DNA from: Nemertoderma westbladi
Lineage: Eukaryota > Animalia > Xenacoelomorpha
DNA length: 61,619 nt
Assembly: GCA_032718475.1 (NCBI GenBank)
Contig: JAUCBJ010007048.1
Location: 1 to 61,619 of the forward strand
Reading direction: 5' to 3'
Made by a program: the position numbers and the translations under genes. The notes under the pieces were generated by a model that saw nothing but the letters and a program-made list of their open reading frames with translations, searched no databases and was not told the DNA's origin. Of this stretch, positions 5,257-33,032 are shown piece after piece (within the stretch, counting starts at the first letter, position 1; each line of letters starts with the position of its first letter).

Positions 5257-6432
5257 TGTAAAAGCTTTTGCGGATATAATCAGTCCCCTTGCCCGCAAAG
5301 TACCGTTGTAGGTGTTTTGGCGGACGTGGGGGTCATTCTTCTATATGTGTGCTTTGGCGGACATGGCAAGGCACAAAACCCGCAATGCGTCAAATACTCT
5401 AGCACAGTGTAGCCTTGATGATTCAGATTACGACATCTAACAGCTGGTTGCTGGCATGGAAACGGCCATTGGACACATGGTTCTTTGTTTAGCTTAACAG
5501 CCAATCAGAGCGATTTTTACTGTCGATGTGGAGATATTCTACAGATCGTGCTAGGAGTGTTCAGTCTTATAGTTTTCTGTGATATAGTTTTGTTGTTTCT
5601 ATCTAGGCCAAGAACACCGGCTCTAGAGTCAATTCGTTTCAGACTTTAGAAGAAACATTAGTAGGCTTAGATTATAGAGCGTATAACTGTTATCAGTCAA
5701 CACAGTCTTATATCACTGCAACATACATTATTATACTGCTATTTACTGTTGTCATTATTTGTATCAGTTGGTTGAATATTATTATTTGGAGAACATCGAT
5801 AAATAACCCAACTTTCCCAATTTTCTTGATACACTACAGGTTAGAGAGACAGGTTACATATAGCGATTGCGACTTATATTATCGTGGTTTGTAGTGAATT
5901 TCATGCTATTTGATAGGCACTACATGAGTCAATTGCTGTTCTCTTTATGTATGATAAAATTCATTGACGGTCGGCAGATTAGCGTGCAGTATCGCATGGT
6001 ACCGGTAGTGTGCATGATTGCGGCTGATAACTAAGCATTTCCTAAAGAATGCGCCTCATACGTGAATCATAAGCCTTACAGTCTTACAGTTGTGTTTAGT
6101 ATAAGTCATATCTCTGTTTACCTAGATAGAGCGCCACGTCCTAAAGGAACTGTTAATATTTCCCGAAAGTGAATAATACTCGTCAGAAATTATTTATTAA
6201 CGATCAATCGAATAATACAGTAAGCTTACACTGCAATAATAAATCTAAGCCCCATCCGAATCCAGTCTCCCGGGTATATCCAGCGGGCGAATGGACGCGC
6301 ACTAGGCTGGCTTCGGCTAATGTTGTGTTTATTGGTATTAAATATTTGTCATTTACTAAAGTCTATTTATAAACCAAAAGACATATAAATTTTGGCAGGT
6401 TAAACTGCTAAAGGTCTTCAAAAGCGCATACA
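5257..6432 (+). repeat. BEL element 5' LTR
   Basis: Direct repeat of 22753-23928; imperfect terminal inverted repeat TGTAAAAGCTTTTG / CAAAAGCGCRTACA. Confidence 0.97.
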
Positions 6433-6497
6433 ATAACAGTTATATTCTTTATTGCAGTAAGCAATAAAGTTGAAAGTACCGGTCGACCGGTAAACCT

Positions 6498-7425: not shown

Positions 7426-8389
7426 CGGGTAGCGTAATATTTATTATTCAGAGTTTATGCGATTATTCGCAACATTCATGTCCCCAAGTTTATTCCTACA
7501 GTAATTGTGCTTGTTACACATACCGTTATAGTTAAATTAACCCCGGTACTACACGGGCTGCTTGGCGTAGGTAAAGACTGGTGACTTCGTGCTCCGGTCA
7601 CTCCAGCAGATGCCGTGGTTCTTTTAACTGTTCAAGTATATTTAACTGCTAGTTATCTGTTTTTAATAAGTACTCGTACCTAATTTAGGGTTTGGTGTAC
7701 AGTGCTTTCCGAAAGTAATTAGTGTGTAGGCAGTGTATTGTGTTGTAAAGTGGTTAATAGGCACGTTGGATCTGGCAGTCCGCGGTAATTGACTTCCAGG
7801 TAGGAACACTCCGTGATACATAACGTAGTACCTATAGCGATACGGCTATAGGTCGTCAGACGGTGGTATTTTCCTATCTGGACAGCGCAGTATATTTACT
7901 ACTACTTATTATTTTCAAATACCGTAGTACCCTGTCCGTTGTAATAACCAGAAGTTCTAACCCTTTGTTAGACTGGTTTGTAGACTTCTTGTAAAATTAC
8001 CCTAAAATTTCATACGTAATATTTTGTTGTGTTTTAATTAGAGAATTAATCTCACCCGTATCGTACGTAATTTGTAGTATTAAGTAACTTAGGTAAATTA
8101 GAATTATCTGTTTTAGTGTCCAATAGGTAGCACTTCACTGAGAGCGCACAGCTTCTGTGTAGTGACTCCCCCCAGAAATAATAACATTTATTTCAAATAT
8201 TGACAAAACCCATTTTAAACAGGTATATATATATTATAAATCAACTCAAACGATTTATAAATAGTAGGCCTGCCATACAACAACTAGGTCTCAATATCAG
8301 TTGGACTACTGCTTAAATAACAGTAATAAAGTAAGTTAAAGTAACTAAGTAACCTTTAAAATTCAGAAATTCAATTATTTAAATAATTG

Positions 8390-8665
8390 ATATACCGGTA
8401 TTCACGATAGGCCTATTATCTTTATTTCTATAAATTTAGGCTGAAATTATACCGGTATTCTGTAATTAATTCTAGTCCAGAATTATACTTATATACTATG
8501 AGTGTAGGCTGTATACCGGTATTCACGATAGGCCTATTATATATTTATATATATTTGTGTTAAAATTATATACCGGTATTCTGAGACAAACCTAGTTTAC
8601 AATACTTATATATATTATAAGTGTATACCGGTATTCTAATATACTGTAATAAATTACCGGTACTA
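8390..8665. repeat. Cluster of palindromic TACCGGTA motifs, including a ~121-bp duplication, before the first ORF
   Basis: TATACCGGTATTCACGATAGGCCTATTAT near 8391 and 8513; six TACCGGTA occurrences. Confidence 0.8.
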
Positions 8666-8742
8666 GGCCAACGGTCATACTGAATTACTAGACTCGCTTT
8701 AACTGTAACTATAGCAGTAAGCATTCAACTGTATAGATAAAC

Positions 8743-9480
8743 ATGTCTGACACCCAGCAAAACCTGTCAGACAGTCTAATCGATACAACTATCTGTGACA
8801 CAGATAGGAGTGTGGAGCGATTAAGAAAGGGGTTCAGCTCACCTCCTACTGAAAGAAAGGTCATCCCTCCAGTAGTAGTATCAGACCCTAGGCTAATCCA
8901 ACACCGTAGGTCTATCATCGGCACTCGGGCCCAAGTCAAACGGAACCAGGAAGCAGCTGTCCAACAGCAGCAACATCCTAGTCAAGAAACTTGTTCCCAG
9001 CGACCCGATAGCTCCAGTAGTTCGGATACTGTAGAGCTGACCCCCGAACGCGGAGTGCAGATGGTGGCTACAGCCTACTCGGATCCCCTTCTCACCCTTC
9101 CTGCCGCAGTGCTAACTACTATATTGATTGCGGTGGAGGAACACCAAGTCGATTGGGCGAGAAGTAAGCGAGCGACCCAAGATAGTTATGCGGGATACGC
9201 CAGGGAAGAATTGATGTCTATTGTCGAGTCACAATGGAACTTTCCCGGACCCGGACTCCCGTTAGATTTGTCCGAAGCTACTTGGGAAGACATCCACAGG
9301 ATGGGAGTGACTAAAAGACACGATGGATCCAGCTGTTTGGAAGAGGTCAGCAGCAGGATATGTACAGGGATTCTTCGGCTCCTTAGAGCGATTAGAAGAA
9401 CAACTGTTTCAACAACCCCAAGGACCTCAAGAGCAGGAAGAGCTGCTATATCAAGTACGCGAAAGAACCCTACGCATTAG
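8743..9480 (+). CDS. BEL gag N-terminal extension, segment 1 (probably joins the next ORF near 9311-9316)
   Basis: First ATG-initiated ORF after the leader; overlaps the next ORF in the +1 frame; no recognisable domain. Confidence 0.65.
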   Translation: MSDTQQNLSDSLIDTTICDTDRSVERLRKGFSSPPTERKVIPPVVVSDPRLIQHRRSIIGTRAQVKRNQEAAVQQQQHPSQETCSQRPDSSSSSDTVELTPERGVQMVATAYSDPLLTLPAAVLTTILIAVEEHQVDWARSKRATQDSYAGYAREELMSIVESQWNFPGPGLPLDLSEATWEDIHRMGVTKRHDGSSCLEEVSSRICTGILRLLRAIRRTTVSTTPRTSRAGRAAISSTRKNPTH

Positions 9481-10057
9481 ACTAATCCTATCAGCCTTTG
9501 AGGAAACTTCCAAAAGAAGACAGGACACGTCGCTGCAGGTTGCTGTCAAGACTTGGTTCCAGCGGGTAGGTCTCAAAGTACAAGAAACGGCCCAGTGGAA
9601 ATCCCAGCTGGCTGAGAGACCAACCTATGAAGAACCAACCGATGCCACCCTTTCTCAAGTGGAAAGCGAAGGGACAGCAGAGAGACCGCGAACGAGAGAC
9701 GCCATCGACATCTATCTGTCAGACTATCAACGCTTCTTGGGTGATGAAGATGAGTTGAGGAGACGACTGGCTGGACTTCGCCCCAATAGTGAAGGAGCCA
9801 AGCTTGTGTTGGACTCAATCGATGCGGAAATGTTAGCTGCAAACCAAGCTAAATTTGATAAAAAAACTCCGCCTCACCAGAGTCCAAGAAGAACAAGTAA
9901 AGAAAAAACGGATAGAGGACCGAAAGGTAGCAGCAGTAACGGCGGCAATGGCAGAAGTAGAAGCAGAAAGAAAGGCAGCAAAAGCAGCGGCGGCAGAAGC
10001 AGAAGCAGAAAGAAAGGCAGCAAAGGCAGTGGCAGAAGCAGAACGGAAAGCGTCTGA
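9311..10057 (+). CDS. BEL gag N-terminal extension, segment 2 (helical, coiled-coil-like)
   Basis: Frame is open from 9311 (ATG at 9323). It reads as protein-like until the A7 run at ~9860-9866, where the next frame takes over (AKFDKK|LRLTRVQEE). Confidence 0.65.
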   Translation, partial: LKDTMDPAVWKRSAAGYVQGFFGSLERLEEQLFQQPQGPQEQEELLYQVRERTLRIRLILSAFEETSKRRQDTSLQVAVKTWFQRVGLKVQETAQWKSQLAERPTYEEPTDATLSQVESEGTAERPRTRDAIDIYLSDYQRFLGDEDELRRRLAGLRPNSEGAKLVLDSIDAEMLAANQAKFDKKTPPHQSPRRTSKEKTDRGPKGSSSNGGNGRSRSRKKGSKSSGGRSRSRKKGSKGSGRSRTESV

Positions 10058-12299
10058 GGAGACTACCCAACTGGAGTTGGAAAATCTGCAAGAGACGCAA
10101 GACAACATAAATAAACAGTTAACTGCTAGTCAAATGCAGATGATGAGACGATCTACTCCCAAACGCCAGGGATACACATCATCGGAGGAAGGCGAGACCA
10201 CCGATTCTGAAGGCGGAGGAAATAGATCTCATCTAAGCAGGCGTAGAAAAACATCTCACTGTCACAAATTGCCTGATTTGCCCCCAGCGGTTAGAAGACA
10301 ACTAGCTAGCACAGACTTAGGTGGTACAGAACCCACAGACCAAATTATTCAAGTCAAAAGACTCCCTACAATAGTAGATGAGCCTGAAATAATTAGGCCT
10401 GTCGTTCCCAAAGCCACTCCTGTGCTAGAGACCCCTGTACTTCCAGAGCTTAACTCTAAATTCCCTTTACACAGTACTACACTGCCTGTACCCGGTAGAA
10501 CAGTCCATGAGAATATCCCTGTCCTGGAAGCTGAGAGAGAAATCAAAGATTTGTCTCCCGTCGTCCCGCGTCGGCCCGCTACAATGTTGGCGACTCCCGC
10601 TTCGGCGGTCGAGTGGGTAGAGGAGGGACGTCGGGGGATGAATCTCCTGCTCGGACAGATGCAGGAGACTGTCCACCAACTTAAGGGAACAGTAAGGGAA
10701 AGTAGGGCAGAATTGCAAGAAGTGCAGCAAAGCATCGCGCTAGAACGTGACAAATTAGTCAATATGCAAAAGGGTATACCAATACCCCCAGTAACATTGT
10801 GTCAACCTGTTAGGTCTGAAGTATTACATGCGCAAGGTGTGGAGCCTACACGCATCTATACTGCTAGTGAAGTAGAAACTCCTATAGCAAACCCTATTAA
10901 GGGTGATTATAAACCTGTTGTTAATGATATTTCCTATAGACCTGATAATAATCCGAGAAATTCATATACCGATAATTCGATATTAAATAACACGATGGCC
11001 CAAGAAAGCTTCACGCGTCAGATGGCTAGAACAGAAGCCCGCCAAGCGGTCAAAGTGGGAGAGATCGTCAAATTCAATGGAGATGAGATGAAATGGTTAC
11101 CTTTCAATGAATATTACAAAGATAGCATACAGAACTCTGTACTATCTAACGGAGAGAAACTTAGATTCCTCATCAAGTGCTTGGAAGGACCTCCCAAGTT
11201 AATGGCGTTAAAGTTTATTCGACATCCAGATGGATTAAGACAAGTTTGGGACACATTAAACATCAGGTATGGTAACAAGGATAACATAGCTAAGTATTTG
11301 TATGCAAAATTAGTAGCCCCCCGAAACTTCCTTAGTAGCGGGATTATAGAGTTTTCCGATGAGATTCAGGAGATCTGTAGACAATTGGACTGGTTAGGTA
11401 AGTCTCATGAATATCAGAGTTCCATGGTTATTGGAGCCGTAGTCTCTACTTTACCAAAGGGTGGAGTATGTACCCGCTGGGACAAGAAAGTGTTGTATAT
11501 GAATGAGCAGCAACGACGAAGCCCTACCATGGCTGATCTCATGTCCTTCTTAGATGGTGAAGTAAAACTACAACTCATCAAGCAGTCCAGAGAGAAAACA
11601 TCGGAAAATAAGGTAAGTGAGAAACCCGTTTCTAGGAGAAGAGTAACACCAGTGTGTTACACTGACGACGGCGCAAGCCAAGCTTCTCAAGAAGAGGACA
11701 GCGGGAAAGACACTGACCGATTTTACTACATTAACAAAACCTCAAAGGACGTAAGTAAATACAAGGCTCGAACCAAAGATAGGAGAGAACAGGTTGCTAA
11801 GACTCCTCCTCAGTCTCCTAACAGAATGCACGGAAGAAAGCCCGAAGAAAGAACGAGAGTGCATCACGTTACCCAAGGTAAAGTGAGTAACATCAAACCA
11901 AACTGTGCGCTGTGCGACGGGCCCCACCGTTTGAGTGCGTGTGCTGAATTTCTAAAGAAATCCCTTGTAGACAGACGTGCAGTCATGTGGGATAACCGGT
12001 TATGCTATAATTGCCTCAGATCAGGACACCAACGGCGAACCTGTTACTCCGACGTAAAGTGTGCAAAGTGTGGCGCGAAACATCACATCTTGTTACACAG
12101 TGAGTTCGAACGAGACAACCCGAGTCAGGTAAGTGAGCCCGAACTACATGTCCAATTCAGTGATGTAAATGACACTGATCAAGAGTCTGAGATGGAAGGA
12201 TTCTATACTGACGAATTCTCCGACGCCAACGAATCCTGTTACCTAATAAATACCACAGTGTATCGAGCACTTACTTACGAAAAGGACACCGACAATTGA
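9855..12299 (+). CDS. gag: BEL/Pao Gag core: DUF1759-like capsid region plus three zinc knuckles
   Basis: KFNGDEMKWLPF...LSNGEKLRFLIKCLEG capsid-like motif; CALCDGPHRLSAC, CYNCLRSGHQRRTC and CAKCGAKHHILLH are the typical BEL knuckle triplet. Confidence 0.93.
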   Translation: MIKKLRLTRVQEEQVKKKRIEDRKVAAVTAAMAEVEAERKAAKAAAAEAEAERKAAKAVAEAERKASEETTQLELENLQETQDNINKQLTASQMQMMRRSTPKRQGYTSSEEGETTDSEGGGNRSHLSRRRKTSHCHKLPDLPPAVRRQLASTDLGGTEPTDQIIQVKRLPTIVDEPEIIRPVVPKATPVLETPVLPELNSKFPLHSTTLPVPGRTVHENIPVLEAEREIKDLSPVVPRRPATMLATPASAVEWVEEGRRGMNLLLGQMQETVHQLKGTVRESRAELQEVQQSIALERDKLVNMQKGIPIPPVTLCQPVRSEVLHAQGVEPTRIYTASEVETPIANPIKGDYKPVVNDISYRPDNNPRNSYTDNSILNNTMAQESFTRQMARTEARQAVKVGEIVKFNGDEMKWLPFNEYYKDSIQNSVLSNGEKLRFLIKCLEGPPKLMALKFIRHPDGLRQVWDTLNIRYGNKDNIAKYLYAKLVAPRNFLSSGIIEFSDEIQEICRQLDWLGKSHEYQSSMVIGAVVSTLPKGGVCTRWDKKVLYMNEQQRRSPTMADLMSFLDGEVKLQLIKQSREKTSENKVSEKPVSRRRVTPVCYTDDGASQASQEEDSGKDTDRFYYINKTSKDVSKYKARTKDRREQVAKTPPQSPNRMHGRKPEERTRVHHVTQGKVSNIKPNCALCDGPHRLSACAEFLKKSLVDRRAVMWDNRLCYNCLRSGHQRRTCYSDVKCAKCGAKHHILLHSEFERDNPSQVSEPELHVQFSDVNDTDQESEMEGFYTDEFSDANESCYLINTTVYRALTYEKDTDN

Positions 12300-15200
12300 G
12301 TTCCCCCCAACTACTTTTGCCAGACAACCATCTTGGAAAGCTCCAACTTCCAATGTAGGAATCAGAGAATTTCCTGTAGTGCAGGTAAGAGTTCACGGTC
12401 CTAACAAAAGTTACATAGTGAACGCCCTCCTTGACTCCGGCAGCACAGGAACATTCATCGATCAAGAACTAGCCGAAGATATCTTTGCTGGACAACCCAA
12501 ATTCCGGACTAAATTGAATATGTCAGGAATTATGCAGGTTTGGAAATCTACCCTAACGGCAGATTACTATGTAGGTGTGTTGTCCACCCCCCAGGATAAA
12601 TTAGGAGCACAAGGTATAAGGTCGGTAAAAATGGTGGCTATAAAGAACTTCGCTACTACCCAAGCAGAACTTTATAATTGGGACGAGGATGAGAGCATCC
12701 AACAGCTTAAGATACCTCGATTCCAGACAGATTATCCTGGAGTGCAAATACTCATCGGCCAAAACGCGCATGAGGCGCTCGAGACATTGGAGAAACGGCC
12801 TGCTCAACCGCAGCCACTGCAAACCTATGCGGTAAGAACTAGAGTAGGTTGGTACTTTACTGGCCCTTCCCGCAGAACTCTCGAAGAGAGAATGCCACAA
12901 GAACGAATATACCAAGTAAACGATTGGGAAGTGGAGAGCAGTGAGGTGGACGAACTAACTGAGGGAACACCATACTCCTCAGATAATGACGACATCTACC
13001 AACTCTTCGATGAAGAGAACACAATCGACCTACTTACAGAAAACAAAACTTGGAAAAACCAGGTGAACCTATGTCAACTGATTCGCCCATCGGGACCCAT
13101 TGATTACAATGACGAACTAAATGATGAGATAGAGCGCTACAACGCTAGAACTCGGGACGAACTCGCCGTACGATTCTTTACTCAAGAATTGGTAGAGCCC
13201 AATTCATACGATAAGGCCATATCGATAGAAGAAGAAAGAGCCAAGCAAATCCAGGAAACAACTACACGTTTTTTAAAGGACCAAGGTAGATATGAAATCG
13301 GCCTACCATTTCGAAAACGAGAACCTAGATTTATAAATAACAGACCCTTGGCAGAGAAAAGAATCGCTCAATTACATCGACGCGTTACGGCTAATGCTTC
13401 AGCTAAAGAAATGTACCAAACTCAGTTGAAGAAATTTATTACAAAGGGATACGCGGAGCGAGTACCGGAAGGAACACCAGTGACTGAGAGAACGTATTAC
13501 TTAACACATCATTACGTTCCCAAACCCGGTAAACCCCATGAAGTACGAGTCGTATTCGATAGCTCCGCTCTATATATGGGCCAATCCCTCAATTCCGAGT
13601 TGTTACCAGGACCCAACTTACTCCAATCTTTGTTGGGAATACTTTTAAGATTAAGACAATATTCCATCGCGTTCGCCTCCGATATAGAAGGAATGTTCTT
13701 ACAAGTCAAGGCGCTGGATAGAGATAGAGACAGCCTGAGATTTCTGTGGTGGCCTGAAGGAGATCTCAACCAGAAACCGGTAGAGTACTGGATGACCATC
13801 CAGGCTTTTGGGATCATATCAAGCCCTTCCAACGCCTGCTCCGTGGTGCGGACCACTGCGAATGACAACCGAGACGCCTTCTCAAAAGAGGTGATAGACA
13901 ACATCAAGCGTAATATATACATGGACGACAATTTAAGGTCCCTTCCATCAGTAGAAGAAGCCATTGATGTCGCGAAAGGAACGGTAGAGTGTTTGAAAAG
14001 AGGTGGATTTCGACTGACGAAATTCACCAGCAACTCCCGTGAGTTTCTGGAAGCGATACCAGTAGAAGACCAAGGAACGAAAGATCTAGACTTAATAAAG
14101 GACGATCTTCCAGAAACCAAGACGCTTGGCTTGAAGTGGGACACCGAAAGAGATATCCTGTTTTTTCAGCTAAAACAGCGAGATAATCCAGTTCGGACCA
14201 AACGGATTTGTTTAAGTATCCTGAGCATTTATTTCGACCCATTGGGATTTATTAGCCCAGTTATATTGATTGCTCGGAGTTTAGTACAACAAATGTGGCT
14301 TGAAAACCACTCATGGGACGATCCACTTAAGGGAGAACTGTTAAAGAAGTGGATGAAATGGGAAGATTCTCTACCTGCCATCGAGAGCTTTATAATTTCC
14401 CGTGCATATTTTGGTCATGTTCTTCCTACATATTCCTATCAACTCCATGTGTTTGGAGACGCCAGCGACATGGGAATAGGTATAGTAGCATATCTGCGAG
14501 TCGAAACTCCGGATGGAATCAAAGTCGCCTTGGTTACCTCTAAGGCATTGATTAACAACAAGTTAAAGGTTCCTCGAGCGGAGTTAAAGGCGGCTTTATA
14601 CGCTACAGCCATCGGCCGGAACGTAACAGAACAAATCGACTATCCACTGGAGAAAACTGTTTATTGGACCGACGCTTTACTCGTGTTGGAATATCTAACC
14701 AATGAAGTCTGTCAGTTCAGCGTTTTTGTTACTAACAGGGTAGCTATTATTCTTAGTCGCACAAAGATAGATCAATGGAGACATTGCCCTGGTACGATTA
14801 ATCCAGCCGATATCGCCTCCAGGGGAGCGACTCCACAGGAACTGATAGATACTCCAGACTGGTTGGGTGGACCCGACTTCCTGAGTAAGGAAGAGGATGA
14901 ATGGCCTCCTCACCTTACTACGGCGGAGATTAGACAAGCCAAGGGAGCGGAGAAAGTCAAACCTAAAACCCGGGCGAGTAAATCGAAGTTATTTAAACCG
15001 ACTATCGATCTATCTGTATTACATACTTCCAGAAACGATGCTTCGGATCCACAATCCGTCGCCACAAATAAGTCTGTTGTGGAAATTAGAGATAGAGATT
15101 GGAAATCTGGAACACCAGACGTCTCGCAAGGAATCTCACCCCTGCTGCAGAGAGCAATGCATCACTACAGTTCCTGGAATCGGCTCTGTAAAGCCGTCAC

Positions 15201-16803
15201 ATATTTAAGGCGATGTTTTCATCATCACTACTCCAGGACGAAGACCATTAGTGATACCGCTCCATTGACATCTGCGCAAGTTCATGTTATTAAAAATTTA
15301 CCCAAGTATAAGACATCCGACCGGTTTCTAAAGGAAAAAATCAGTTACCAGGAGCATGAAGAAACCAATAAGCAGATACTGAGACTCCTGCAATGCTATG
15401 AGGATTCCGATAAGTATTTCCTGTTGTTGAGAAATCCGCAGATGCGCTTAAGGGATCGCTTCTCTAGCACAATGATAGATGGGTTAATACGTGTTGGAGG
15501 AAGGCTCACCAATGCGCCATTATCCTTTGACACTAAATTCCCCATACTCATTAGAAATCTTGAAGTACAAATCAAGATGATTGTAGATGTTCACAGTAAA
15601 CTTTATCATGCTGGTAGAGAACGAGTTCTTAGCGAAATTCGAACTCGCTATTATTTTGATAAACCCCGTAGAGCTCTGAACCAAGTTCTTAGGAACTGCA
15701 TACCCTGTAGGAAAGCATTCAGTAGGCCTTTAACACAGCGAGAGGCAGAATTACCTAGGGAACAAGTAAGCTTCTATGAACCACCTTTTACTAATACTGG
15801 TGTAGATTTATTTGGCCCTATTGAAGTATATCGTGCTAGGACTATAGTCAAGAGATGGTGTGTCATCTTCGTATGCATGACTTGTAGAGCCATCCATCTC
15901 GATATGGTGAACGATCTATCTACCAACAGCTTCGTCTTAAGTTTACGCCGACAGATTGCTCGCTTCGGGACGAGTAATACCATGAGATCGGATAAGGGAA
16001 CGAACTTCATTGGTGCCAACAACGAAATCCAGGCTTACGTGAAGGACTGGAACCAAAGACAGGTGGACGATCAGCTAAGGATAACAGCATCTAGCTGGAC
16101 CTTCAACGCCGCCGACGCCCCTTGGTGGGGAGGAAATTGGGAGAGATTAATTAGAAGTGTCAAGACCGCATTTCACTTTATAGTGCCATGCCGCGCGTAT
16201 CTCACCGACGAACTTTTGCGGACATTAATGGAGGAAATAGCTGCCTATCTCAACGAGAGACCGCTTATGCCAGTCTCATCGAGTCCCGATTCCCTGGAAG
16301 CGATAACACCCGCGCACTTCCTACTGAAGAAACCTGTAGCCATGCTCCCACGATCCGAGATTACCGACGGAGACGAATACTGCCGTCGAACTTGGCAACT
16401 TATGCAGTTGCTATCCCGTCGTTTCGCTGACCATTTCGAGAAACATTATCTGCCCACGCTACAACTTCGAACTAAGTGGTTTGCGCAGCAAGAAAACGTC
16501 AGCGCCGGAGATATGGTGCTTATTGTAGATTCAGACCTTCCACGTAAACGGTGGCAGACAGGTCGTATCATCGAGACTCACATCTCGGATGATGGTTTAG
16601 TACGCTCGGTAGAACTCGTCGTCATGCGGCGTAACTTCAAGAAGCCAGGCATAATCTTTGAGACGCAACAACTCAACCGCCCAGTGGGTCGTTTATGTTT
16701 ACTGGAAAGAGACAGAGAACTCTCCGGAAACTATGGAAGACAAGACACTCTTCCCACGACCACCTCCCTAATTCCTCAAACATCTAGGGACTCCCCAACG
16801 TGA
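12250..16803 (+). CDS. pol: BEL/Pao Pol: aspartic protease, reverse transcriptase, RNase H, integrase
   Basis: ALLDSGS (PR); RVVFDSSA, SDIEGMFLQV and YMDD (RT); LHVFGDAS, PRAELKA, WTDA and NPADIASRG (RNase H); HAG...CIPC, GVDLFGP, SDKGTNF and PWWGGNWERLI (INT). The frame is open from 12250 and overlaps the gag end. Confidence 0.97.
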   Translation: MPQCIEHLLTKRTPTIEFPPTTFARQPSWKAPTSNVGIREFPVVQVRVHGPNKSYIVNALLDSGSTGTFIDQELAEDIFAGQPKFRTKLNMSGIMQVWKSTLTADYYVGVLSTPQDKLGAQGIRSVKMVAIKNFATTQAELYNWDEDESIQQLKIPRFQTDYPGVQILIGQNAHEALETLEKRPAQPQPLQTYAVRTRVGWYFTGPSRRTLEERMPQERIYQVNDWEVESSEVDELTEGTPYSSDNDDIYQLFDEENTIDLLTENKTWKNQVNLCQLIRPSGPIDYNDELNDEIERYNARTRDELAVRFFTQELVEPNSYDKAISIEEERAKQIQETTTRFLKDQGRYEIGLPFRKREPRFINNRPLAEKRIAQLHRRVTANASAKEMYQTQLKKFITKGYAERVPEGTPVTERTYYLTHHYVPKPGKPHEVRVVFDSSALYMGQSLNSELLPGPNLLQSLLGILLRLRQYSIAFASDIEGMFLQVKALDRDRDSLRFLWWPEGDLNQKPVEYWMTIQAFGIISSPSNACSVVRTTANDNRDAFSKEVIDNIKRNIYMDDNLRSLPSVEEAIDVAKGTVECLKRGGFRLTKFTSNSREFLEAIPVEDQGTKDLDLIKDDLPETKTLGLKWDTERDILFFQLKQRDNPVRTKRICLSILSIYFDPLGFISPVILIARSLVQQMWLENHSWDDPLKGELLKKWMKWEDSLPAIESFIISRAYFGHVLPTYSYQLHVFGDASDMGIGIVAYLRVETPDGIKVALVTSKALINNKLKVPRAELKAALYATAIGRNVTEQIDYPLEKTVYWTDALLVLEYLTNEVCQFSVFVTNRVAIILSRTKIDQWRHCPGTINPADIASRGATPQELIDTPDWLGGPDFLSKEEDEWPPHLTTAEIRQAKGAEKVKPKTRASKSKLFKPTIDLSVLHTSRNDASDPQSVATNKSVVEIRDRDWKSGTPDVSQGISPLLQRAMHHYSSWNRLCKAVTYLRRCFHHHYSRTKTISDTAPLTSAQVHVIKNLPKYKTSDRFLKEKISYQEHEETNKQILRLLQCYEDSDKYFLLLRNPQMRLRDRFSSTMIDGLIRVGGRLTNAPLSFDTKFPILIRNLEVQIKMIVDVHSKLYHAGRERVLSEIRTRYYFDKPRRALNQVLRNCIPCRKAFSRPLTQREAELPREQVSFYEPPFTNTGVDLFGPIEVYRARTIVKRWCVIFVCMTCRAIHLDMVNDLSTNSFVLSLRRQIARFGTSNTMRSDKGTNFIGANNEIQAYVKDWNQRQVDDQLRITASSWTFNAADAPWWGGNWERLIRSVKTAFHFIVPCRAYLTDELLRTLMEEIAAYLNERPLMPVSSSPDSLEAITPAHFLLKKPVAMLPRSEITDGDEYCRRTWQLMQLLSRRFADHFEKHYLPTLQLRTKWFAQQENVSAGDMVLIVDSDLPRKRWQTGRIIETHISDDGLVRSVELVVMRRNFKKPGIIFETQQLNRPVGRLCLLERDRELSGNYGRQDTLPTTTSLIPQTSRDSPT

Positions 16804-18419
16804 TACGTCTGGAGTGGGCGCATGACTATATTATTCTATCTATTTTTATTATATTTTATATGCGAACTTTATTATGTACTTTATTATAATCGTTTTATTT
16901 AATTTTATTTAGTAGAATGTTATTTTAGACTATTTAGTAGGTTAGTGCAATATATTAGTGTTTATTACGTAATTACACAGAACATATTTAATATGACGGC
17001 GAGAAATAATTCTTTCTTTTCCTTACAGTCCATATTATATTATAAATACGAGACTACATGTAAGATGACATGTCAGTACTTATTAAAGTACAATAAAGCT
17101 CCTACTATATTTAAGTATTATTGGTAGGCAGAGTATTAGGAATGCAAAGTTCAGATCCTCGTGTCTCGGCTAAACCAAGCTCTGGGTAGACCTTGGAAAC
17201 GACTTGCCTCTTCACACTGACATTGCTTCGTGCGATATTGCTCTCATACCATATATAATAATACATATAGTAGCGTGATGTCCCTCTAACAGTAGCGTAA
17301 AACGCAAATAAAGCTGTTAAACCTTTTGACCATCTGTAATTCTAGTCGATTAAGATATCGTGGCACCCACCGATATAGTTGAAAGACAAATTCTAGAATC
17401 AGTGGTTAACGTCCCCAGACAAGTTCTGGAATAAATCGGTGCCCATCTTAAATATTAATTTAATATTTATTAAAATCTGTAAAATTCAGATCCTTTAAAA
17501 TTTCTAGTCAATTAAGATATCGCAGCACTTACCGATACTCTTAAAAGACAATTTTATAGAATTAAAGATCCTCAGTCCCCAGACATGCTCTGGAATAAAA
17601 ATTGTGTCAATTTTAACATCAAATAATACAATTCACGGGAATAAATTTAAATTCATATTTTAAATGAATATCATAAATTGTCATTTTGTGCAATTTATAA
17701 CATTCCCAAAATTCCATTAATTAATAGATCATGGGAGCGGAGATTCATCCTATTGAGTGTATTAGAGTGCGAGAATCTCCAACATATAGTCAATAGCCGA
17801 TAAAAATTAATAAAATCATGCATAGAGAGGATATTGACAATTAAAGAATTACTATTAAATAGTATTCCAGATCTGTATGCATGAGAATTACCCTAATTCT
17901 ACCGCTAGCTTTCCATAATGTCACCATAGCAACACCCACGCTAGAATTAGAAGCAAGTTAAAAGAACAATAGAAAGCTTGTCCCATTGCATAGCATAGAG
18001 AATACATAGCACACTGTTAGTATCCAAGGATACACAGTAATAACGTGACATTCTGGAAGGCACTGACTAACGGACAAATGGCCTGTATGTGTACAATTGG
18101 TGACAGTTGTGTGGAATTTGTGCGTTTATAGGTGAATGTTACTGCTAAAGTATGTTTACAGTAGCTAGTCACAATTGTGAAAGTAACCCAACTCTCCTAT
18201 AGAAAGAACCTAAAGTGGATCCAAGCCATTGGGACGGACAGTGGAGTGACTTGTGCCGGTTATCGTTGTCGTGCTGTTGCTACATGTTGGCGTAAACACC
18301 GCGACGACGGTACATCGGCGCTGAGAATCCCACTGTCCGGGGGCAACGAGAGGTAGGCAGCGACGCCCGCTAGCCTAAACATAAACTCATTTTGATATTA
18401 ATAAACTCAGATAGCAGAT

Positions 18420-18848
18420 ATGATGGAGTTGATAGAAGATGATCTTGGTATTAGGGAGTGATATACTCTACCTTTACAAGGATTTGTGGATAGCTTAATA
18501 TGCGGTGAAGCCGATCCAACCATTACGGAGGACGATGGTCGTTATATCGAACCGCCGATGTCCCAAGAGCAACTTACGCGTGAATTGGACTATCGAAAAT
18601 TCACCGCTCGCTATACGAATCGTAATGGTACGTATATGGACTTCTTAACTACCGGCCATCCTATCGATTTACATGATACGGACGATGTAGACACAGAAAG
18701 GGAAATGGTTCTATTTAAATATCATACCCAGCGGAGTCGTAACGATAAACCGAGAATAGAACACGAAAATTATATTCGTAACAGACTGGAAAGATAAAAC
18801 GTTGAAGAACCGGATAAACGCATCGACTTCAACGACTACCTGGAATTT
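18420..18848 (+). pseudogene. In-frame N-terminal part of the extra ORF, interrupted by TGA (18459-18461) and TAA (18795-18797)
   Basis: ATG at 18420, ORF 18486-18797 and ORF 18849-22532 share one frame: MMELIEDDLGIRE*YTLPLQGFVDS...RLER*NVEEPDKRIDFNDYLEFLRETY. Confidence 0.7.
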
Positions 18849-21800
18849 TTGAGAGAAACTTATCTCAACATCGCCAGTCAGCAGAACCTAGAGACTCGAT
18901 ATCCTCAAGGTATACATCATGACCCTATGGTAGAACTCAAACGGCTCTATTTCACTATGATGTATCTTACCGCCGATCGTCCACTACCTGTTATCCCGGA
19001 TAGTTTTGAACAAATGGAAGAATATTGCAAAACTGGAGAACGATCACCCGCGTTTCCTCTACAGGACGTACGTCTTTGGTATTATTGTGACGAATGCCCT
19101 AGACCCAACCAACAAACTGAAAGACATAAACATCCGCGGAGACGTTGCGCTAAACACAGCTTTACGCGTTATACTTACGGGAGTTTCGAGCGAAACCTGT
19201 TCGACGTATCACCCACAATCGCTCGTCTTAAACGATCACTAAATAAACCTATGATCAGAGTTCCGGAATACTCGGTCAGGCCTCCTCATTCCCTAGTGAG
19301 ACCTCAAACTCTTGATCCTAACAGTATCACTGATCCTCCCGAACTATATTCCCTGTTCAAAGACTTAGTGTTACCCGAACAATTAATCGGTGGTGCTCCG
19401 GTAGTGGGTTCGTTAGACATTCGCCCATCCTACTTAGCCGGATTGGGACGCGGGCAGCTAATATCGCCATTTGATCCTTACAATCGTCCAGGATTAAACC
19501 CGATGCAACCCGCCACGGAAGTCGAGGAGAGCGTTATAAGAAACGCTTTAGACGCCATTCGACAGAAGATCGGAAAGGGAACACAAGATTGTTTAGAGAA
19601 ACGTAAATTACAACAACAAGTCCAATCGGTGAAGGAGTTAGCCTTGCCACAGTTCGATAGAGAAATCCAAAACCTCGAGGAGGACATCGAGCTTGGACGC
19701 ACGTATTCTCTACAAGAGTTTTTAGATGAACGCTTACAGAGACAAGCGGAAGAAAATCTACTCGAGGAGAAACACACGAAAATGGACGAGAGAGAAGAAG
19801 CCGCTTTAGCCCAACCTGAAGCTCAAATCCTTATGACAGATCTCTACTCTAAAACCGTCCGTCATCCCTCGATGATTCCACATTTCGGAGACAAACTCTT
19901 CGCGACGATACAACCTCAACCGGTTGATATCAGTACAGGATCGCAAAATCTTATCGCTGACGCCCCTATGTTACAGCGTCCGCCAATCGAGGCTGCTCGT
20001 GTTGACGGTATACTCGTTGAACCTCCGGACAATCGATCGGATCTTGTCCGTCGTATGGTACACGATGTCAACATACGCGCTAGACCTTTACAGAACTCGT
20101 TTTATGGGATTAAAGACCACCCTTATTACGTTAATCTGACTCAATATTATATGGTAAAACCAGAAGACCCGACGCATAATTTAAAGTTTCTACCACTAAT
20201 AAATCCTCTAGACGTTGTCGAACTCGAACAATTGCAGAAACATCTGGATCAGTTAGTAAAGGTAAACTCATTTAGAAAACCATATAACATTTCTCGAATC
20301 GAGAAGGATATAGAACCTCCTTATAATCTCGATGGATTTATTAAAACTCGATTAGTCCATTGGAATCTAGATCTATTATTTGAAGAAGAGAAAATACAAA
20401 GATATGGAAATGTGGAGACGTATACCACTCGGCACATGAAGTATAGTGATCTCCCTGACGCTAACCAATGCGCCACCTTGTGGCATCCAGTAGGGATGAC
20501 CCTAGAGAACGCCACCAAGGAGTGGAATGAAACTCTTAATGTTATTGAGATGTATGGAGTTGTCACCTACGATAATGAAGGTAGCGTTCCGTTCGGAGAA
20601 CTAGGAACTACGCGCATGATCCACATACGCGGATTAGCTGGTTCTACCCACGTGTTTACTCGAGCGTGTTCCGACGTGATTGATTATTCCTTTGAAACTC
20701 TCACCGAAACACAAAAGAATCTCCGACATGGACAATTCGAACTCGCGCAGCGTTACGTCATTGACACTGAACGCAAACCGGCCATGGGTATCGATGGATC
20801 GATGTTACCCCAGCCCGTACTCGAGATGTTGTTCAACGAAAGAATCCTTAAAATCGGCTCAGCTGTTTATGGAGATCTCCAAAACGACTTTCGGAATATG
20901 GAAAATATCCCATATCCTTTCGTAGATACGCAACTGATTGCTCCCTGGGCAGAAGGTCGAGGTTTCTTCCGCACCATGTATGCTAATACGTCTAGCAACA
21001 TTACAAAGGTGCAACGAACTTCCATCGGACATCTTGCCTTTCAGGAATACGGATGGAATTTCAAAGTCGGAAATCCCATCAACTATCAACAAGTATACGT
21101 AGACCATTATTCTCGATTATACTTTGATGGACCATTGACCGCACCTGGCGTCGTGTATAGCTTCATGAGTGTTCCACTCCGTCCCTCCTTAGCTATCTAC
21201 ACGATCTTTGAAAACACCGCACTTGCCGGTTGGCTAGCCGATGTGTGCAGTCGTACTATACGCGCCCATCCATTAATACTTGGGACCAAACTCGCTAAGC
21301 TAGATGAACATAATAAATTCATCCGCTTCGAATGTTTCCGGCGATTTTTAACCCCGTTCCGCAACGTGGATAGCCAATTTAAAGACCGCGCTTTAACCAA
21401 GCTCAGCCTAAGAAACTCAGCTGCAGAGAAGTTAGATAGCGCTGGATTTGCCATTTTCAAAGAGATTTGTATATCGAACTTGCACTCCTCTGTTATACAA
21501 AGACCTAGAATCCCCACAGGTTATTCTGTCGTGGAAATTCAGACAATAGGTCCACTTGAAGAGACAGACACGCCCACCTCAGCTACGCACTGGGAAGACG
21601 AACCAATATGCCTAGAATCTGAGGAGATTCAGCCTATCACCCCCCGGAACAGCGACAACGATTACATCCTAGAATGGTATCAAGGTCCACAGTGTCTCAC
21701 TGCGTACGATTATCGACATGCCAACTATGTTTCTAGGCAACGTTGTCGGTTATGCGCATCGAGAGACCATGTTACGCCTATGGACACAAACGTCCGCTGT

Positions 21801-22532
21801 TCCTATTTCCAAGAACAACCGACGATGGAAATTTATTGCGCATATTGCAGACTCAATAACTTGCACATTTTTGCAGTTTGCCCTCAATTTATGACTCAAT
21901 GTCATCATTGTCAACTAAAGGGACACGCCAGTTTCGATTGCCCTTTTAATCACGATTTGGAAAGCGTAGATGAAATGATCACACTACGTTACATCAGAGC
22001 TTGGGAAGCGAACGCTGATTTACATTGTGATTCGCGCCATCGCTATTATCCTGGACGCGCTTACGAAGGAGTTTATGCGTTCCATCCTTACCTATTCGCT
22101 TCTGTCGAACAGAAATCACGCATATCGAGTTACGAACTACTAAAGCGCGTCGGAGAATGTATTTCAACCAAGTTCGTATGCAAATTTCTCAGGAGTGTTA
22201 ATCCTAGCGACCTTCATTCATATAACCTAATCAATTTTATCCGTCAGGATCCGGACTATGGAGACTTATTTGTTAACTCACACCCCGAGTTACAGGAAGT
22301 ATATCGACGGCCTTACAAATACCGAGCCCGCGAACGCGAGTTGGAAAGAACCATTAAACCCAGGAAGTTTCTGACTGCCTATGGTCCACCCACGGCTCTC
22401 GTTCAGACCACTCGTAAAGGACCCGTAAGAGCGGCCGTCCTAAAACGTGCTCTCAAGGCCATTAGACCCCTCTCCCCCGATGTTGATGTCAATCAACCCT
22501 TGCACTTCGACTGGCGGATACACCGACCATAA
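18849..22532 (+). CDS. Extra ORF (ORF3) of the BEL element: coiled-coil region, DEDDy-like 3'-5' exonuclease domain, three Cys/His knuckles
   Basis: 1227 open codons inside the LTRs. ExoI-like VVTYDNEG (20559-20582), ExoII-like LFNERILKIGSAVYGDL, FVDTQ, SIGHLAFQEYGWNFK, ExoIII-like PLRPSLAIYTIFE. Knuckles CRLCASRDH..., CAYCRLNNLHIFAVC and CHHCQLKGHASFDC at 21744-21941. The CDS is well supported; the domain call is by motif recognition only. Confidence 0.8.
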   Translation: MRETYLNIASQQNLETRYPQGIHHDPMVELKRLYFTMMYLTADRPLPVIPDSFEQMEEYCKTGERSPAFPLQDVRLWYYCDECPRPNQQTERHKHPRRRCAKHSFTRYTYGSFERNLFDVSPTIARLKRSLNKPMIRVPEYSVRPPHSLVRPQTLDPNSITDPPELYSLFKDLVLPEQLIGGAPVVGSLDIRPSYLAGLGRGQLISPFDPYNRPGLNPMQPATEVEESVIRNALDAIRQKIGKGTQDCLEKRKLQQQVQSVKELALPQFDREIQNLEEDIELGRTYSLQEFLDERLQRQAEENLLEEKHTKMDEREEAALAQPEAQILMTDLYSKTVRHPSMIPHFGDKLFATIQPQPVDISTGSQNLIADAPMLQRPPIEAARVDGILVEPPDNRSDLVRRMVHDVNIRARPLQNSFYGIKDHPYYVNLTQYYMVKPEDPTHNLKFLPLINPLDVVELEQLQKHLDQLVKVNSFRKPYNISRIEKDIEPPYNLDGFIKTRLVHWNLDLLFEEEKIQRYGNVETYTTRHMKYSDLPDANQCATLWHPVGMTLENATKEWNETLNVIEMYGVVTYDNEGSVPFGELGTTRMIHIRGLAGSTHVFTRACSDVIDYSFETLTETQKNLRHGQFELAQRYVIDTERKPAMGIDGSMLPQPVLEMLFNERILKIGSAVYGDLQNDFRNMENIPYPFVDTQLIAPWAEGRGFFRTMYANTSSNITKVQRTSIGHLAFQEYGWNFKVGNPINYQQVYVDHYSRLYFDGPLTAPGVVYSFMSVPLRPSLAIYTIFENTALAGWLADVCSRTIRAHPLILGTKLAKLDEHNKFIRFECFRRFLTPFRNVDSQFKDRALTKLSLRNSAAEKLDSAGFAIFKEICISNLHSSVIQRPRIPTGYSVVEIQTIGPLEETDTPTSATHWEDEPICLESEEIQPITPRNSDNDYILEWYQGPQCLTAYDYRHANYVSRQRCRLCASRDHVTPMDTNVRCSYFQEQPTMEIYCAYCRLNNLHIFAVCPQFMTQCHHCQLKGHASFDCPFNHDLESVDEMITLRYIRAWEANADLHCDSRHRYYPGRAYEGVYAFHPYLFASVEQKSRISSYELLKRVGECISTKFVCKFLRSVNPSDLHSYNLINFIRQDPDYGDLFVNSHPELQEVYRRPYKYRARERELERTIKPRKFLTAYGPPTALVQTTRKGPVRAAVLKRALKAIRPLSPDVDVNQPLHFDWRIHRP

Positions 22533-22744
22533 TCCTACACCCTCTGATGCAATCATATTGCACCCTTCACCCAGGAGTTATAGCCCTCCTTGTAAAGTGG
22601 CTCGCCCCAAAGAGAAAAAGACTTTGGCCAGCTTTAAAAAACTGCGTAAATGCCGTCCGCGCAAGAAAGACTAACTGTTTAGAGTATTTACGTATATTAG
22701 AAACTGTGATTTTTGTATATTTATAGACTTGAATCCCATTTTCT

Positions 22745-22752
22745 GGGAGCGG
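22745..22752 (+). other. Polypurine tract of the BEL element
   Basis: GGGAGCGG immediately 5' of the 3' LTR. Confidence 0.7.
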
Positions 22753-23928
22753 TGTAAAAGCTTTTGCGGATATAATCAGTCCCCTTGCCCGCAAAGTACC
22801 GTTGTAGGTGTTTTGGTGGACGTGGGGGTCATTCTTCTATATGTGTGCTTTGGCGGACATGGCAAGGCACAAAACCCGCAATGCGTCAAATACTCTAGCA
22901 CAGTGTAGCCTTGATGATTCAGATTACGACATCTAACAGCTGGTTGCTGGCATGGAAACGGCCATTGGACACATGGTTCTTTGTTTAGCTTAACAGCCAA
23001 TCAGAGCGATTTTTACTGTCGATGTGGAGATATTCTACAGATCGTGCTAGGAGTGTTCAATCTTATAGTTTTCTGTGATATAGTTTTGTTGTTTCTATCT
23101 AGGCCAAGAACACCGGCTCTAGAGTCAATTCGTTTCAGACTTTAGAAGAAACATTAGTAGGCTTAGATTATAGAGCGTATAACTGTTATCAGTCAACACA
23201 GTCTTATATCACTGCAACATACATTATTATACTGCTATTTACTGTTGTCATTATTTGTATCAGTTGGTTGAATATTATTATTTGGAGAACATCGATAAAT
23301 AACCCAACTTTCCCAATTTTCTTGATACACTACAGGTTAGAGAGACAGGTTACATATAGCGATTGCGACTTATATTATCGTGGTTTGTAGTGAATTTCAT
23401 GCTATTTGATAGGCACTACATGAGTCAATTGCTGTTCTCTTTATGTATGATAAAATTCATTGAAGGTCGGCAGATTAGCGTGCAGTATCGCGTGGTACCG
23501 GTAGTGTGCATGATTGCGGCTGATAACTAAGCATTTCCTAAAGAATGCGCCTCATACGTGAATCATAAGCCTTACAGTCTTACAGTTGTGTTTAGTATAA
23601 GTCATATCTCTGTTTACCTAGATAGAGCGCCACGTCCTAAAGGAACTGTTAATATTTCCCGAAAGTGAATAATACTCGTCAGAAATTATTTATTAACGAT
23701 CAATCGAATAATACTGTAAGCTTACACTGCAATAATAAATCTAAGCCCCATCCGAATCCAGTCTCCCGGGTATATCCAGCGGGTGAATGGATGCGCACTA
23801 GGCTGGCTTCGGCTAATGTTGTGTTTATTGGTATTAAATACTTGTCATTTACTAAAGTCTATTTATAAACCAAAAGACATATAAATTTTGGCAGGTTAAA
23901 CTGCTAAAGGTCTTCAAAAGCGCGTACA
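22753..23928 (+). repeat. BEL element 3' LTR
   Basis: Direct repeat of 5257-6432, followed by the TSD GAAAC. Confidence 0.97.
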
Positions 23929-30729: not shown

Positions 30730-31130
30730 GTGAGTTCACAATATTATCGTATGGAATTATGGTCTTGTGAAGGAGTTCTTGTCGTTTACACAACAGGGGT
30801 TAATAATATTAGGCAAAACAACCGATCCAAAGCAAAAGGTATTACCTTTTACTAAAAGTATTATGTCGGAAAAGCTTAATTAACAGTAAGGAGTATAGAA
30901 ATAAATAAGGAACACATCAGTGAATAATATAGAACAATTAATTTTAATAAAATAATAAAAAATACCTAATAATAATAATGATTGCATTGTGCTAAATATA
31001 ATTTGCAGTTATTTAATTCAGTTGTCGCATAAATATCCGACAGATATCCATGGTCAAAGTCCGACCAAGAGGATCAAATCAATTGTATGATTTCGAGATC
31101 TAGATATGTTCTTGGGTGCAGGAGAGGCAG

Positions 31131-33032
31131 CTCTCGACGGTGGCTCTGTATTCCAGAGCGATTCCAACTCTTTAACGTGGGTCACTTTGGATACTCTCGA
31201 CGATGGCTCTGTATTCCAGAGCGATTCAAACTCTTTAACATGGCTCGCTTCACATACTCTCTACGATGGCTCTGTATTCCAGAGCGATTCCAACTCTTTA
31301 ATGTGCCTCGCTTCGGATACTCTCGACGGTGGCTCTGTATTCCAGAGCGATTCCAACTCTTTAACATGGCTCGCTTCACATACTCTCTACGATGGCTCTG
31401 TATTCCAGAGCGATTCCAACTCTTTAATGTGCCTCGCTTCGGATACTCTCGACGGTGGCTCTGTATTCCAGAGCGATTCCAACTGTTTAACGTGGGTCGC
31501 TTCGGATACTCTCGACGATGGCTCTGTATTCCAGAGCGATTCCATATCGACAGTGGCTCTGTATTCCAGAGCGATTCCAACTCTTTAACGTGGGTCGCTT
31601 TGGATACTCTCGCCGATGGCTCTGTATTCCAGAGCGATTCCATATCGACAGTGGCTCTGTATTCCAGAGCGATTCCAAATCTTTAACGTGGGTCGCTTTG
31701 GATACTCTCGCCGATGGCTCTGTATTCCAGAGCCATTCCAACTCTTTAACGTGGGTTGCTTCGGATACTCTCGATGATGGCTCTGTATTCCAGAGTGATT
31801 CCAACTCTTTAACGTGGGTCGCTTCGGATACTCTCGCCGATGGCTCTGTATTCCAGAGCGATTCCAACCCTTTAATGTGGGTCGCTTCGGATACTCTCGC
31901 CGATGGCTCTGTATTCCAGAGCGATTCCAACTCTTTAACGTGGCTCGCTTCAAATACTCTCGACGATGGCTCTGTATTCCAGAGTGATTCCAACTCTTTA
32001 ACGTGGCTCGCGTCGGATACTCTCGACGATGGATCTGTATTCCAGAGCGATTCCAACTCTTTAACGTGGCTCGCTTCAAATACTCTCGACGATGGCTCTG
32101 TATTCCAGAGCGATTCCAACTCTTTAATGTGGCTCGCTTCGGATACTCTCGACGATGGCTCTGTATTCCAGAGCGATTCCAACTCTTTAATGTGGCTCGC
32201 TTCGGATACTCTCGCCGATGGCTCTGTATTCCAGAGCGATTCCAACCCTTTAATGTGGGTCGCTTCGGATACTCTCGCCGATGGCTCTGTATTCCAGAGC
32301 GATTCCAACTCTTTAATGTGGCTCGCTTCGGATACTCTCGCCGATGGCTCTGTATTCCAGAGCGATTCCAACCCTTTAATGTGGGTCGCTTCGGATACTC
32401 TCGCCGATGGCTCTGTATTCCAGAGCGATTCCAACCCTTTAATGTGGGTCGCTTCGGATACTCTCGCCGATGGCTCTGTATTCCAGAGCGATTCCAACTC
32501 TTTAACGTGGCTCGCTTCACATACTCTCTACGATGGCTCTGTATTCCAGAGCGATTCCAACTCTTTAATGTGGCTCGCTTCGGATACTCTCGCCGATGGC
32601 TCTGTATTCCAGAGCGATTCCAACCCTTTAATGTGGGTCGCTTCGGATACTCTCGCCGATGGCTCTGTATTCCAGAGCGATTCCAACCCTTTAATGTGGG
32701 TCGCTTCGGATACTCTCGCCGATGGCTCTGTATTCCAGAGCGATTCCAACTCTTTAACGTGGCTCGCTTCAAATACTCTCGACGATGGCTCTGTATTCCA
32801 GAGTGATTCCAACTCTTTAACGTGGCTCGCGTCGGATACTCTCGACGATGGATCTGTATTCCAGAGCGATTCCAACTGTTTAACGTGGCTCGCTTCGGAT
32901 AGTCTCGACGATGGCTCTGTATTCCAGAGCGATTCCAACTCTTTAACGTGGCTCGCTTCAAATACTCTCGACGATGGCTCTGTATTCCAGAGCGATTCCA
33001 ACTCTTTAACGTAGGTCGCTTCGGATAGTCTC
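31131..33032. repeat. 63-bp tandem satellite (~30 copies), intronic
   Basis: Unit CTCTCGACGATGGCTCTGTATTCCAGAGCGATTCCAACTCTTTAACGTGGCTCGCTTCGGATA, with two shortened units near 31540 and 31640. Confidence 0.97.

Follow-up and report, generated by a model that had tools for sequence, protein, structure and literature searches.

A BEL/Pao retrotransposon of Nemertoderma westbladi with a predicted DEDDy-like exonuclease domain and zinc knuckles in its third open reading frame

The 61,619-nucleotide contig JAUCBJ010007048.1 of Nemertoderma westbladi, referred to here over its whole length as the window, contains a complete long terminal repeat (LTR) retrotransposon, which is large and young and occurs many times over. 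Our analysis concerns the third open reading frame of this element (ORF3), which lies between pol and the 3′ LTR. A first-pass annotation had proposed that this frame encodes a DEDDy-like 3′-5′ exonuclease domain followed by zinc knuckles, at the env position of a BEL/Pao element. The proposal is supported by remote-homology tests and by a distant homologue, P0002, in which both modules are found.

Structure of the element and extent of ORF3

Self-comparison of the window placed the complete insertion at 5257-23928 (18,672 bp). It is bounded by two LTRs of 1,176 bp each, which differ at 9 of 1,176 positions (99.2% identical), carry TG..CA termini and are flanked on either side by the 5-bp target duplication GAAAC, in agreement with the matched LTRs described earlier. 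The element is a BEL/Pao LTR retrotransposon, because its gag contains the Pfam domain DUF1759 (E 8e-13) and its pol contains Peptidase_A17 (E 2.6e-35), Integrase_H2C2 (E 3.9e-7) and DUF5641 (E 4.8e-20). The N-terminal protease was matched weakly, and the Pao-type gag and pol markers are present in the order protease, reverse transcriptase (RT), RNase H, integrase. The description of the element as giant depends on the yardstick: 18.7 kb exceeds the 15 kb applied as an upper bound to full-length BEL/Pao elements in PMC3118150, whose supplementary length table may bear on this claim, whereas the internal region of 16.3 kb stays below the 20-kb threshold applied in PMC6431247. The following features were located.

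5257..6432, forward strand: 5′ LTR, 1,176 bp, TG..CA, GAAAC directly upstream
5682..5693, forward strand: candidate self-primer segment, LTR nucleotides 426-437, exact reverse complement of the 12 nucleotides after the LTR; second copy at 23178-23189
6433..6444, forward strand: predicted primer-binding site of the self-complementary type, 12 of 12 nucleotides pairing with LTR nucleotides 426-437
8743..12299, forward strand: gag region, three overlapping frames (8737-9480, 9311-10057, 9837-12299), the last of which contains DUF1759 and an array of Cys/His knuckles
12250..16803, forward strand: pol, with aspartic protease, RT (IYMDD in the translation), Pao Peptidase_A17 region, integrase H2C2 and DUF5641
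16804..18419, no strand: spacer from pol to ORF3, 1.6 kb, AT-rich, lacking coding bias
18420..18797, forward strand: probable 5′ part of ORF3, same frame, two stops in the present copy (z 2.8)
18798..22532, forward strand: ORF3, open for 1,244 codons and lacking a membrane segment, with no family match in the N-terminal 550 residues
20529..21269, forward strand: predicted DEDDy/RNase D/WRN-like 3′-5′ exonuclease domain, by remote homology, with insertions of ~29 residues after strand 3 and ~25 residues before ExoIII
21744..21941, forward strand: three Cys/His knuckles, Cx2Cx4Hx9C, Cx2Cx5Hx4C and Cx2Cx4Hx4C (the last canonical), present in P0002 too
22741..22752, forward strand: purine-rich tract, short and imperfect, adjoining the 3′ LTR
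22753..23928, forward strand: 3′ LTR, TG..CA, GAAAC directly downstream

As annotated, translation of 18849-22532 gives 1,227 residues with no stop, and from stop to stop the frame extends over 18798-22532. Each of the other five frames across ORF3 has 62-79 stops, and a run this long would stay open by chance with a probability of ~1e-29. The codon bias of ORF3 is like that of gag and pol (z 9.5, with a model trained on these two genes). Position 18849, where the annotated stretch begins, is a TTG within the frame, and the first methionine is at 18927. Further upstream, the same frame holds an ATGATG (18420) followed by two stops (18459-61, 18795-97). The segment 18420-18794 is coding-like (z 2.8), in contrast to the preceding 420 bases (z 0.5). 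Because both the ATGATG and the coding-like bias are found from this point on, ORF3 probably began at 18420 with ~1,370 codons, and its 5′ end is broken in the present copy. The gene may alternatively begin at the methionine at 18927 or at a spliced start.

The absence of a transmembrane segment noted earlier was confirmed. The highest 19-residue hydropathy in ORF3 is 1.21, so that the frame does not encode an envelope protein and a role as an env fusogen was ruled out. The N-terminal ~550 residues showed no Pfam family match. Near the start of ORF3, at 19086-19157, lies a Cys/His cluster (C80, C83, H93, H95, C100, H103) with no family match, which is possibly a further zinc site.

Predicted exonuclease domain and zinc knuckles

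It is very probable, as judged from sequence comparisons, that ORF3 carries a DEDDy/RNase D-like fold. The DnaQ/RNase H-like fold for which a profile search had been suggested was detected by a hidden Markov model (HMM), by hhalign and in the ESM Atlas. The reference HMM was built from bacterial WRN-like exonucleases; a motif scan gave 120 loci, 78 of them usable, and all three that were checked belonged to PF01612. Among 4,212 residues including gag and pol, this HMM selected ORF3 residues 651-699 (E 3e-4) and P0002 residues 107-133. With hhalign, the pair of ORF3 and P0002 matched the WRN-like profile at a probability of 95.9% and ORF3 alone at 82%, compared to less than 1% for five other ORF3 windows. 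The score of the pair was 58.7, against 13.8±2.2 (maximum 18.8) for 40 column shuffles. In the ESM Atlas, 25 of 30 matches to ORF3 residues 540-830 fell into clusters of 3′-5′ exonucleases carrying PF01612, with scores of 0.92-0.93.

The homologue P0002 was the single match of a HMMER search over 1.84 billion representative proteins (E 4.7e-5, 29% identical), and word-indexed protein searches yielded no homologue besides it. It is an unnamed singleton of 648 residues from a contig of 9,449 bp. P0002 shares the nuclease region with ORF3 (Smith-Waterman score 146 versus 30±4 in 500 shuffles) and, independently, the knuckles (66 versus 31±5.5, maximum 56, in 500 shuffles). It has a weak PF01612 match of its own (E 0.2), and its top ESM Atlas match, to be taken as a lead only, is a Euglenozoa cluster of exonucleases with PF01612 and zf-CCHC (0.86). 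The three knuckles in ORF3, one of them a canonical CCHC as described earlier, begin at 21744, 21837 and 21900 (residues 966-984, 997-1011 and 1018-1031). A knuckle profile made from ORF3 and P0002 has a match to retroviral nucleocapsids (E 0.001) and a weak one to Air2. Besides the nuclease and the triple knuckle, P0002 shares the conserved block that follows.

All motif positions given by the first-pass annotation could be reproduced: D575 at 20571, E577 at 20577, ILKIGSAVYGDL at 20844, FVDTQ at 20919, SIGHLA at 21021 and YTIFE at 21198. ExoI thus consists of D575 and E577, ExoII contributes D676 (20874), and ExoIII contributes Y784 (21198) and E788 (21210). The D-x-E of ExoI and the D of ExoII are present in ORF3 and likewise in P0002, and D676 was located by the unguided HMM. 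The canonical Y-x3-D of ExoIII was found in neither protein; ORF3 has Y784-x3-E788 and P0002 also has Y-x3-E. Two ExoIII candidates had been left standing. YTIFE is retained, with YIYCE at the aligned place in P0002, and YSFMS was ruled out because P0002 keeps Y-x3-E. Since P0002 settles ExoIII in this way, the predicted catalytic site reads D-E-D-E-y, a DEDE-y variant and not a canonical DEDDy member. Such a D-E-D-E acid set has been described for other active nucleases of the RNase H fold (PMC4538837). A literature search for a D-to-E mutant at this ExoIII position found none. Residues ~611-622 were considered as another candidate for ExoI and ruled out, as the first acid is missing and the stretch is predicted to be helical in the single-sequence model.

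Due to the insertions of ~29 and ~25 residues in ORF3, automatic alignment places ExoI and ExoIII less securely. On the present comparisons the guided register makes the best sense, because ExoI then falls on a predicted strand and P0002 shows D-E, D and Y-x3-E in the same columns. The spacing L-x3-Q-x2-Y in P0002 is canonical. A guided structure model was computed from an alignment with 31 of the 78 bacterial WRN-like rows and reached a predicted local distance difference test score (pLDDT) of 55; it is partly circular and indicates compatibility only. Searched with Foldseek, this model, built on WRN-like rows, matched Nibbler at E 6e-4. Compared with RNase D, WRN, Nibbler, Exd1 and trypanosome RND, it gave Z scores of 10.7-12.2 and root-mean-square deviations of 3.2-4.1 over ~150 residues, the best Z overall being 12.7. 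The WRN-likeness of the combined profile reflects the bacterial reference rows; because these rows dominate, the result shows only that the reference set is WRN-like.

No HRDC domain was matched after the nuclease in Pfam at E 10. Locus searches of viral contigs, metagenomes and prokaryote genomes returned no relatives. A tblastn search of plasmids and phages gave only rows at E 2-10, among them an RNase D at E 6, which carries no weight, and a spurious phage row.

Copies of the element and possible roles of ORF3

Six sequencing runs from four studies contain the window or part of it (one run may be its source), and four were mapped onto the element. In run X1 alone, 141,565 contigs match the element, although this depth does not measure copy number. 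These contigs span identities from >99% to <90%, which indicates a large and diverse family. Among the matches listed, 15 contig pieces lie in ORF3 at ~2-20% divergence; 11 of the 15 are gap-free, and three cover parts of the nuclease. ORF3 is therefore present in diverged sister copies; its absence from them had been named earlier as a sign of one-off cargo. For the selection test, the 40 best-supported differences were used, at sites chosen by the tool, of which 10 fall in ORF3. Six of these 10 were synonymous, compared to 22-30% expected (p 0.01-0.05), and the value for gag and pol together was 7 of 14 (p 0.10). The synonymous excess in ORF3 agrees weakly with selection. Two of the four mapped runs contain a deletion form with a joint from 18784 to 21589, which lacks 18785-21588, that is, most of ORF3 including the nuclease, and keeps the knuckles. 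ORF3 looks dispensable in cis because of this form. Further contig joints (12992-14768 and 14957-16668) represent deletion forms that lack parts of pol. The deletion forms are likely to be non-autonomous derivatives.

Our tentative interpretation is that ORF3, as the third gene of a multi-copy BEL/Pao family, encodes an RNase D/WRN-type exonuclease with three knuckles that trims RNA 3′ ends, most likely those of host small silencing RNAs or their precursors. D575, E577, D676, E788 and Y784 would, somewhat more probably than otherwise, form an active two-metal site. By analogy with trypanosome RND, the knuckles would grip single-stranded RNA and feed it to this site. RND owes stronger RNA binding and much stronger cleavage to its zinc fingers, and guide RNAs are depleted when it is over-expressed (PMC7797062). 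The 1.6-kb non-coding spacer suggests that ORF3 may have a message of its own or be expressed by splicing, and that it may act in trans. The least certain step is the target, and it is rather doubtful that the trimmed molecules are small silencing RNAs, or precursors of these, that the host directs against the element. Anti-silencing was ranked first because a separate third gene fits a host-facing role and because self-primed elements exist for which no such gene has been noted. If this is true, ORF3 would be an element-encoded suppressor of small-RNA silencing or, should it act on the primer, a primer-maturation factor, and either would be a new step in the LTR life cycle.

Several observations weigh against this interpretation. 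Mature piRNAs (PIWI-interacting RNAs) are usually 3′-methylated and resistant to such enzymes, and no feature was found that points to small RNAs as the target. ExoIII has E in place of D. Unguided MAFFT misplaced ExoI and ExoIII, hhalign aligned the ExoI of the template to another part of ORF3, and all three motifs were aligned in only 5 of 54 guided settings. The ESM Atlas feature counts of 162-171 are at or below the 170 typical of same-family matches. ORF3, searched whole or in pieces, gave no Pfam nuclease match, and no nuclease was returned when the PDB sequences were searched with the domain, with the profile of the pair or with the P0002 domain. The single-sequence structure model of the domain reached a pLDDT of 31.6 and its Foldseek search was uninformative; the model that does match DEDDy enzymes was driven by the WRN-like alignment, hence its partial circularity. 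Additionally, the present copy looks broken at the 5′ end of ORF3, with two in-frame stops, and the selection test comprises 10 tool-chosen sites, next to a p of 0.10 for gag and pol.

Among the alternatives, the best placed, although rather unlikely, is that the fold was kept and cutting was lost, as in EXD1 and Egalitarian, and that the protein binds element RNA together with its knuckles and aids localisation or protection. The change from D to E in ExoIII of both ORF3 and P0002 and the large insertions flanking the site are consistent with this, as are the matches of the guided model to Exd1 (Z 10.8) and Egalitarian (Z 10.2). Inactive DEDD derivatives with RNA-binding ability are noted in PMC5408684. 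The ~550 N-terminal residues that match no family could be scaffolding. Dead enzymes usually lose the acids outright, whereas here two proteins of only 29% identity both retain the tyrosine and all four acids. Also, inactive members are not ranked above active ones in the fold matches.

The priming of the element offers another possibility. As judged by TGG, and not against host tRNAs, no tRNA-type primer site was found in the first 88 nucleotides after the 5′ LTR. The 12 nucleotides at 6433-6444 form a duplex of -18.2 kcal/mol with their complement in the LTR, with perfect pairing that ends at the LTR boundary. This complement occurs nowhere else in the element but in the other LTR, and 23 of 20,000 Markov-resampled LTRs reached 12-nucleotide complementarity. 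RNase H is the cutter in Tf1-type self-priming. The data suggest that the element uses Tf1-like self-priming, and this would provide a concrete possible substrate for a 3′-5′ trimmer. After a rough cut of the element RNA, ORF3 might trim the 3′ overhang down to the 12-bp duplex at the LTR edge and so leave the primer for RT, which we also regard as rather unlikely. Self-priming requires a cleavage step (PMC4600332), and the knuckles could bring the ORF3 protein into the particle. On the other hand, Tf1-type elements make their primer by cleaving their own RNA, and the available text of PMC4600332 mentions no extra gene for it. An initiator-like TCAGTC begins at the last base of the paired LTR segment and could put this segment outside the RNA 5′ end. 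Unlikely, too, is the broader proposal of a highly amplified, self-primed BEL/Pao lineage in which tRNA primer and envelope were both replaced and a dedicated DEDE-y exoribonuclease would trim the element's own RNA to the exact primer end. Such a protein would be without precedent as a primer-maturation nuclease that an element encodes apart from its RT, and P0002 would then point to a broader family so far overlooked.

DNA-directed proofreading or trimming of cDNA ends for a long genome, as by WRN or polymerase exonucleases, is the least likely of the functions considered in the first-pass annotation, and we regard it as very improbable: the exonuclease domains of WRN (Z 11.9) and Pol I (Z 11.4) match the guided model as well as RNases do and the element is above the usual BEL/Pao length (PMC3118150), yet ORF3 is not fused to RT, with 1.6 kb of non-coding DNA lying between it and pol, its knuckles resemble RNA-binding nucleocapsid and Air2 arrays, and larger LTR elements are described with no such enzyme mentioned in the available text of PMC6431247. 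Equally improbable is neutral cargo, that is, a host gene captured once and carried with no function for the element, for which the gene's two 5′ stops in this copy, the deletion form in two of four runs and the roughly neutral variation of rotifer env-like and GDSL ORF3s within a genome (PMC5408684) could be cited, because the region is mostly gap-free in copies up to ~20% diverged with synonymous differences in excess, and the 3.7-kb frame is intron-free with no close cellular homologue among the 1.84 billion representatives (one match, P0002).

Relation to known systems and further features of the locus

The bdelloid rotifer retrotransposons Juno and Vesta are gypsy-like. Their DEDDy ORF3s, named in the first-pass annotation as a precedent, are indeed described by Rodriguez et al. 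2017 (PMC5408684), also for Athena/Terminon; the motif is given as DEED, and the function was left untested in that study. As in the present element, an RNase D-like DEDDy domain stands in a separate ORF3 downstream of pol and shows no membrane segment (PMC5408684). Unlike the present element, Juno and Vesta are not BEL/Pao members and are treated as a deep-branching rotifer clade; their motif is DEED and not D-E-D-E, as compared by description only, and a triple-knuckle array is not described in the available text for their ORF3 (PMC5408684). The present ORF3 exceeds 1,240 residues.

The env-bearing BEL/Pao elements (roo, mosquito BELs with a chuvirus glycoprotein, Atlas virus) likewise carry an additional ORF downstream of pol, ahead of the 3′ LTR. 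These extra ORFs encode membrane fusogens (PMC13524379), whereas no hydrophobic segment is found in the present ORF3. In the available text of PMC3118150 and PMC13524379, only env-type extra genes are mentioned for BEL/Pao and the word 'exonuclease' occurs 0 times in either, and the corresponding parts of PMC6431247 and PMC6338049 cite only the rotifer case for DEDDy. Our literature search, in which most papers were judged by their title and the beginning of the abstract, yielded no report of a nuclease ORF in BEL/Pao; Repbase, Dfam and subscription journals lay beyond its scope. Tf1 and Tj1 share the primer site complementary to their own LTR but belong to another superfamily, and no nuclease ORF3 is described for them in the available text of PMC4600332.

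Among cellular enzymes, RND of Trypanosoma brucei resembles ORF3 and P0002 in having a DEDD-type 3′-5′ exonuclease followed by a C-terminal CCHC array (PMC7797062; PDB 7c42), and it matched the guided model at Z 10.7. RND is, however, a mitochondrial enzyme of its host, and its four CCHC fingers sit on a linker of 28 residues (PMC7797062), whereas ORF3 has three knuckles (one canonical) ~165 residues past the nuclease in a much larger, element-borne protein. ORF3 may work like RND and is not classed as a member of it. Nibbler/Mut-7, WRN, EXD2, EXD1 and Egalitarian have the same fold and motif order as ORF3, but the identity is 10-20% and ORF3 has Y-x3-E in ExoIII; none of these stands out as the donor of the nuclease.

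New here are the BEL/Pao host, the predicted D-E-D-E-y site, the triple knuckle, the very large size and the self-priming context, the exonuclease ORF3 itself being known from rotifers. Its occurrence in another LTR superfamily suggests that retrotransposons have recruited RNA-trimming enzymes repeatedly. ORF3 is a large, apparently selected gene with predicted RNA-binding knuckles of its own, and its nuclease domain lends itself to direct expression and assay. Because standard Pfam annotation misses the domain, genes of this kind have probably been under-counted.

Some further features of the locus were observed. The gag region is spread over three overlapping frames, the two upstream pieces are coding-like (z 5.0 and z 5.6), and gag and pol overlap in different frames; the gag of the present copy looks frameshifted. 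The 2.3-kb leader contains repeats (6457-6698, 6873-7452, 8391-8636), namely a 38-bp unit in five tandem copies, a duplication of ~290 bp and a further one of ~130 bp. The purine-rich tract ahead of the 3′ LTR ends in TGGGAGCGG, and this sequence recurs at ~17630 (approximate position) in the spacer between pol and ORF3, where it could be a central primer or a chance occurrence. Downstream of the element, 26986-53300 holds 15-17-bp satellites and larger repeated units of ~2 kb, and a 63-bp tandem array at 31008-33141 yields spurious ORFs.

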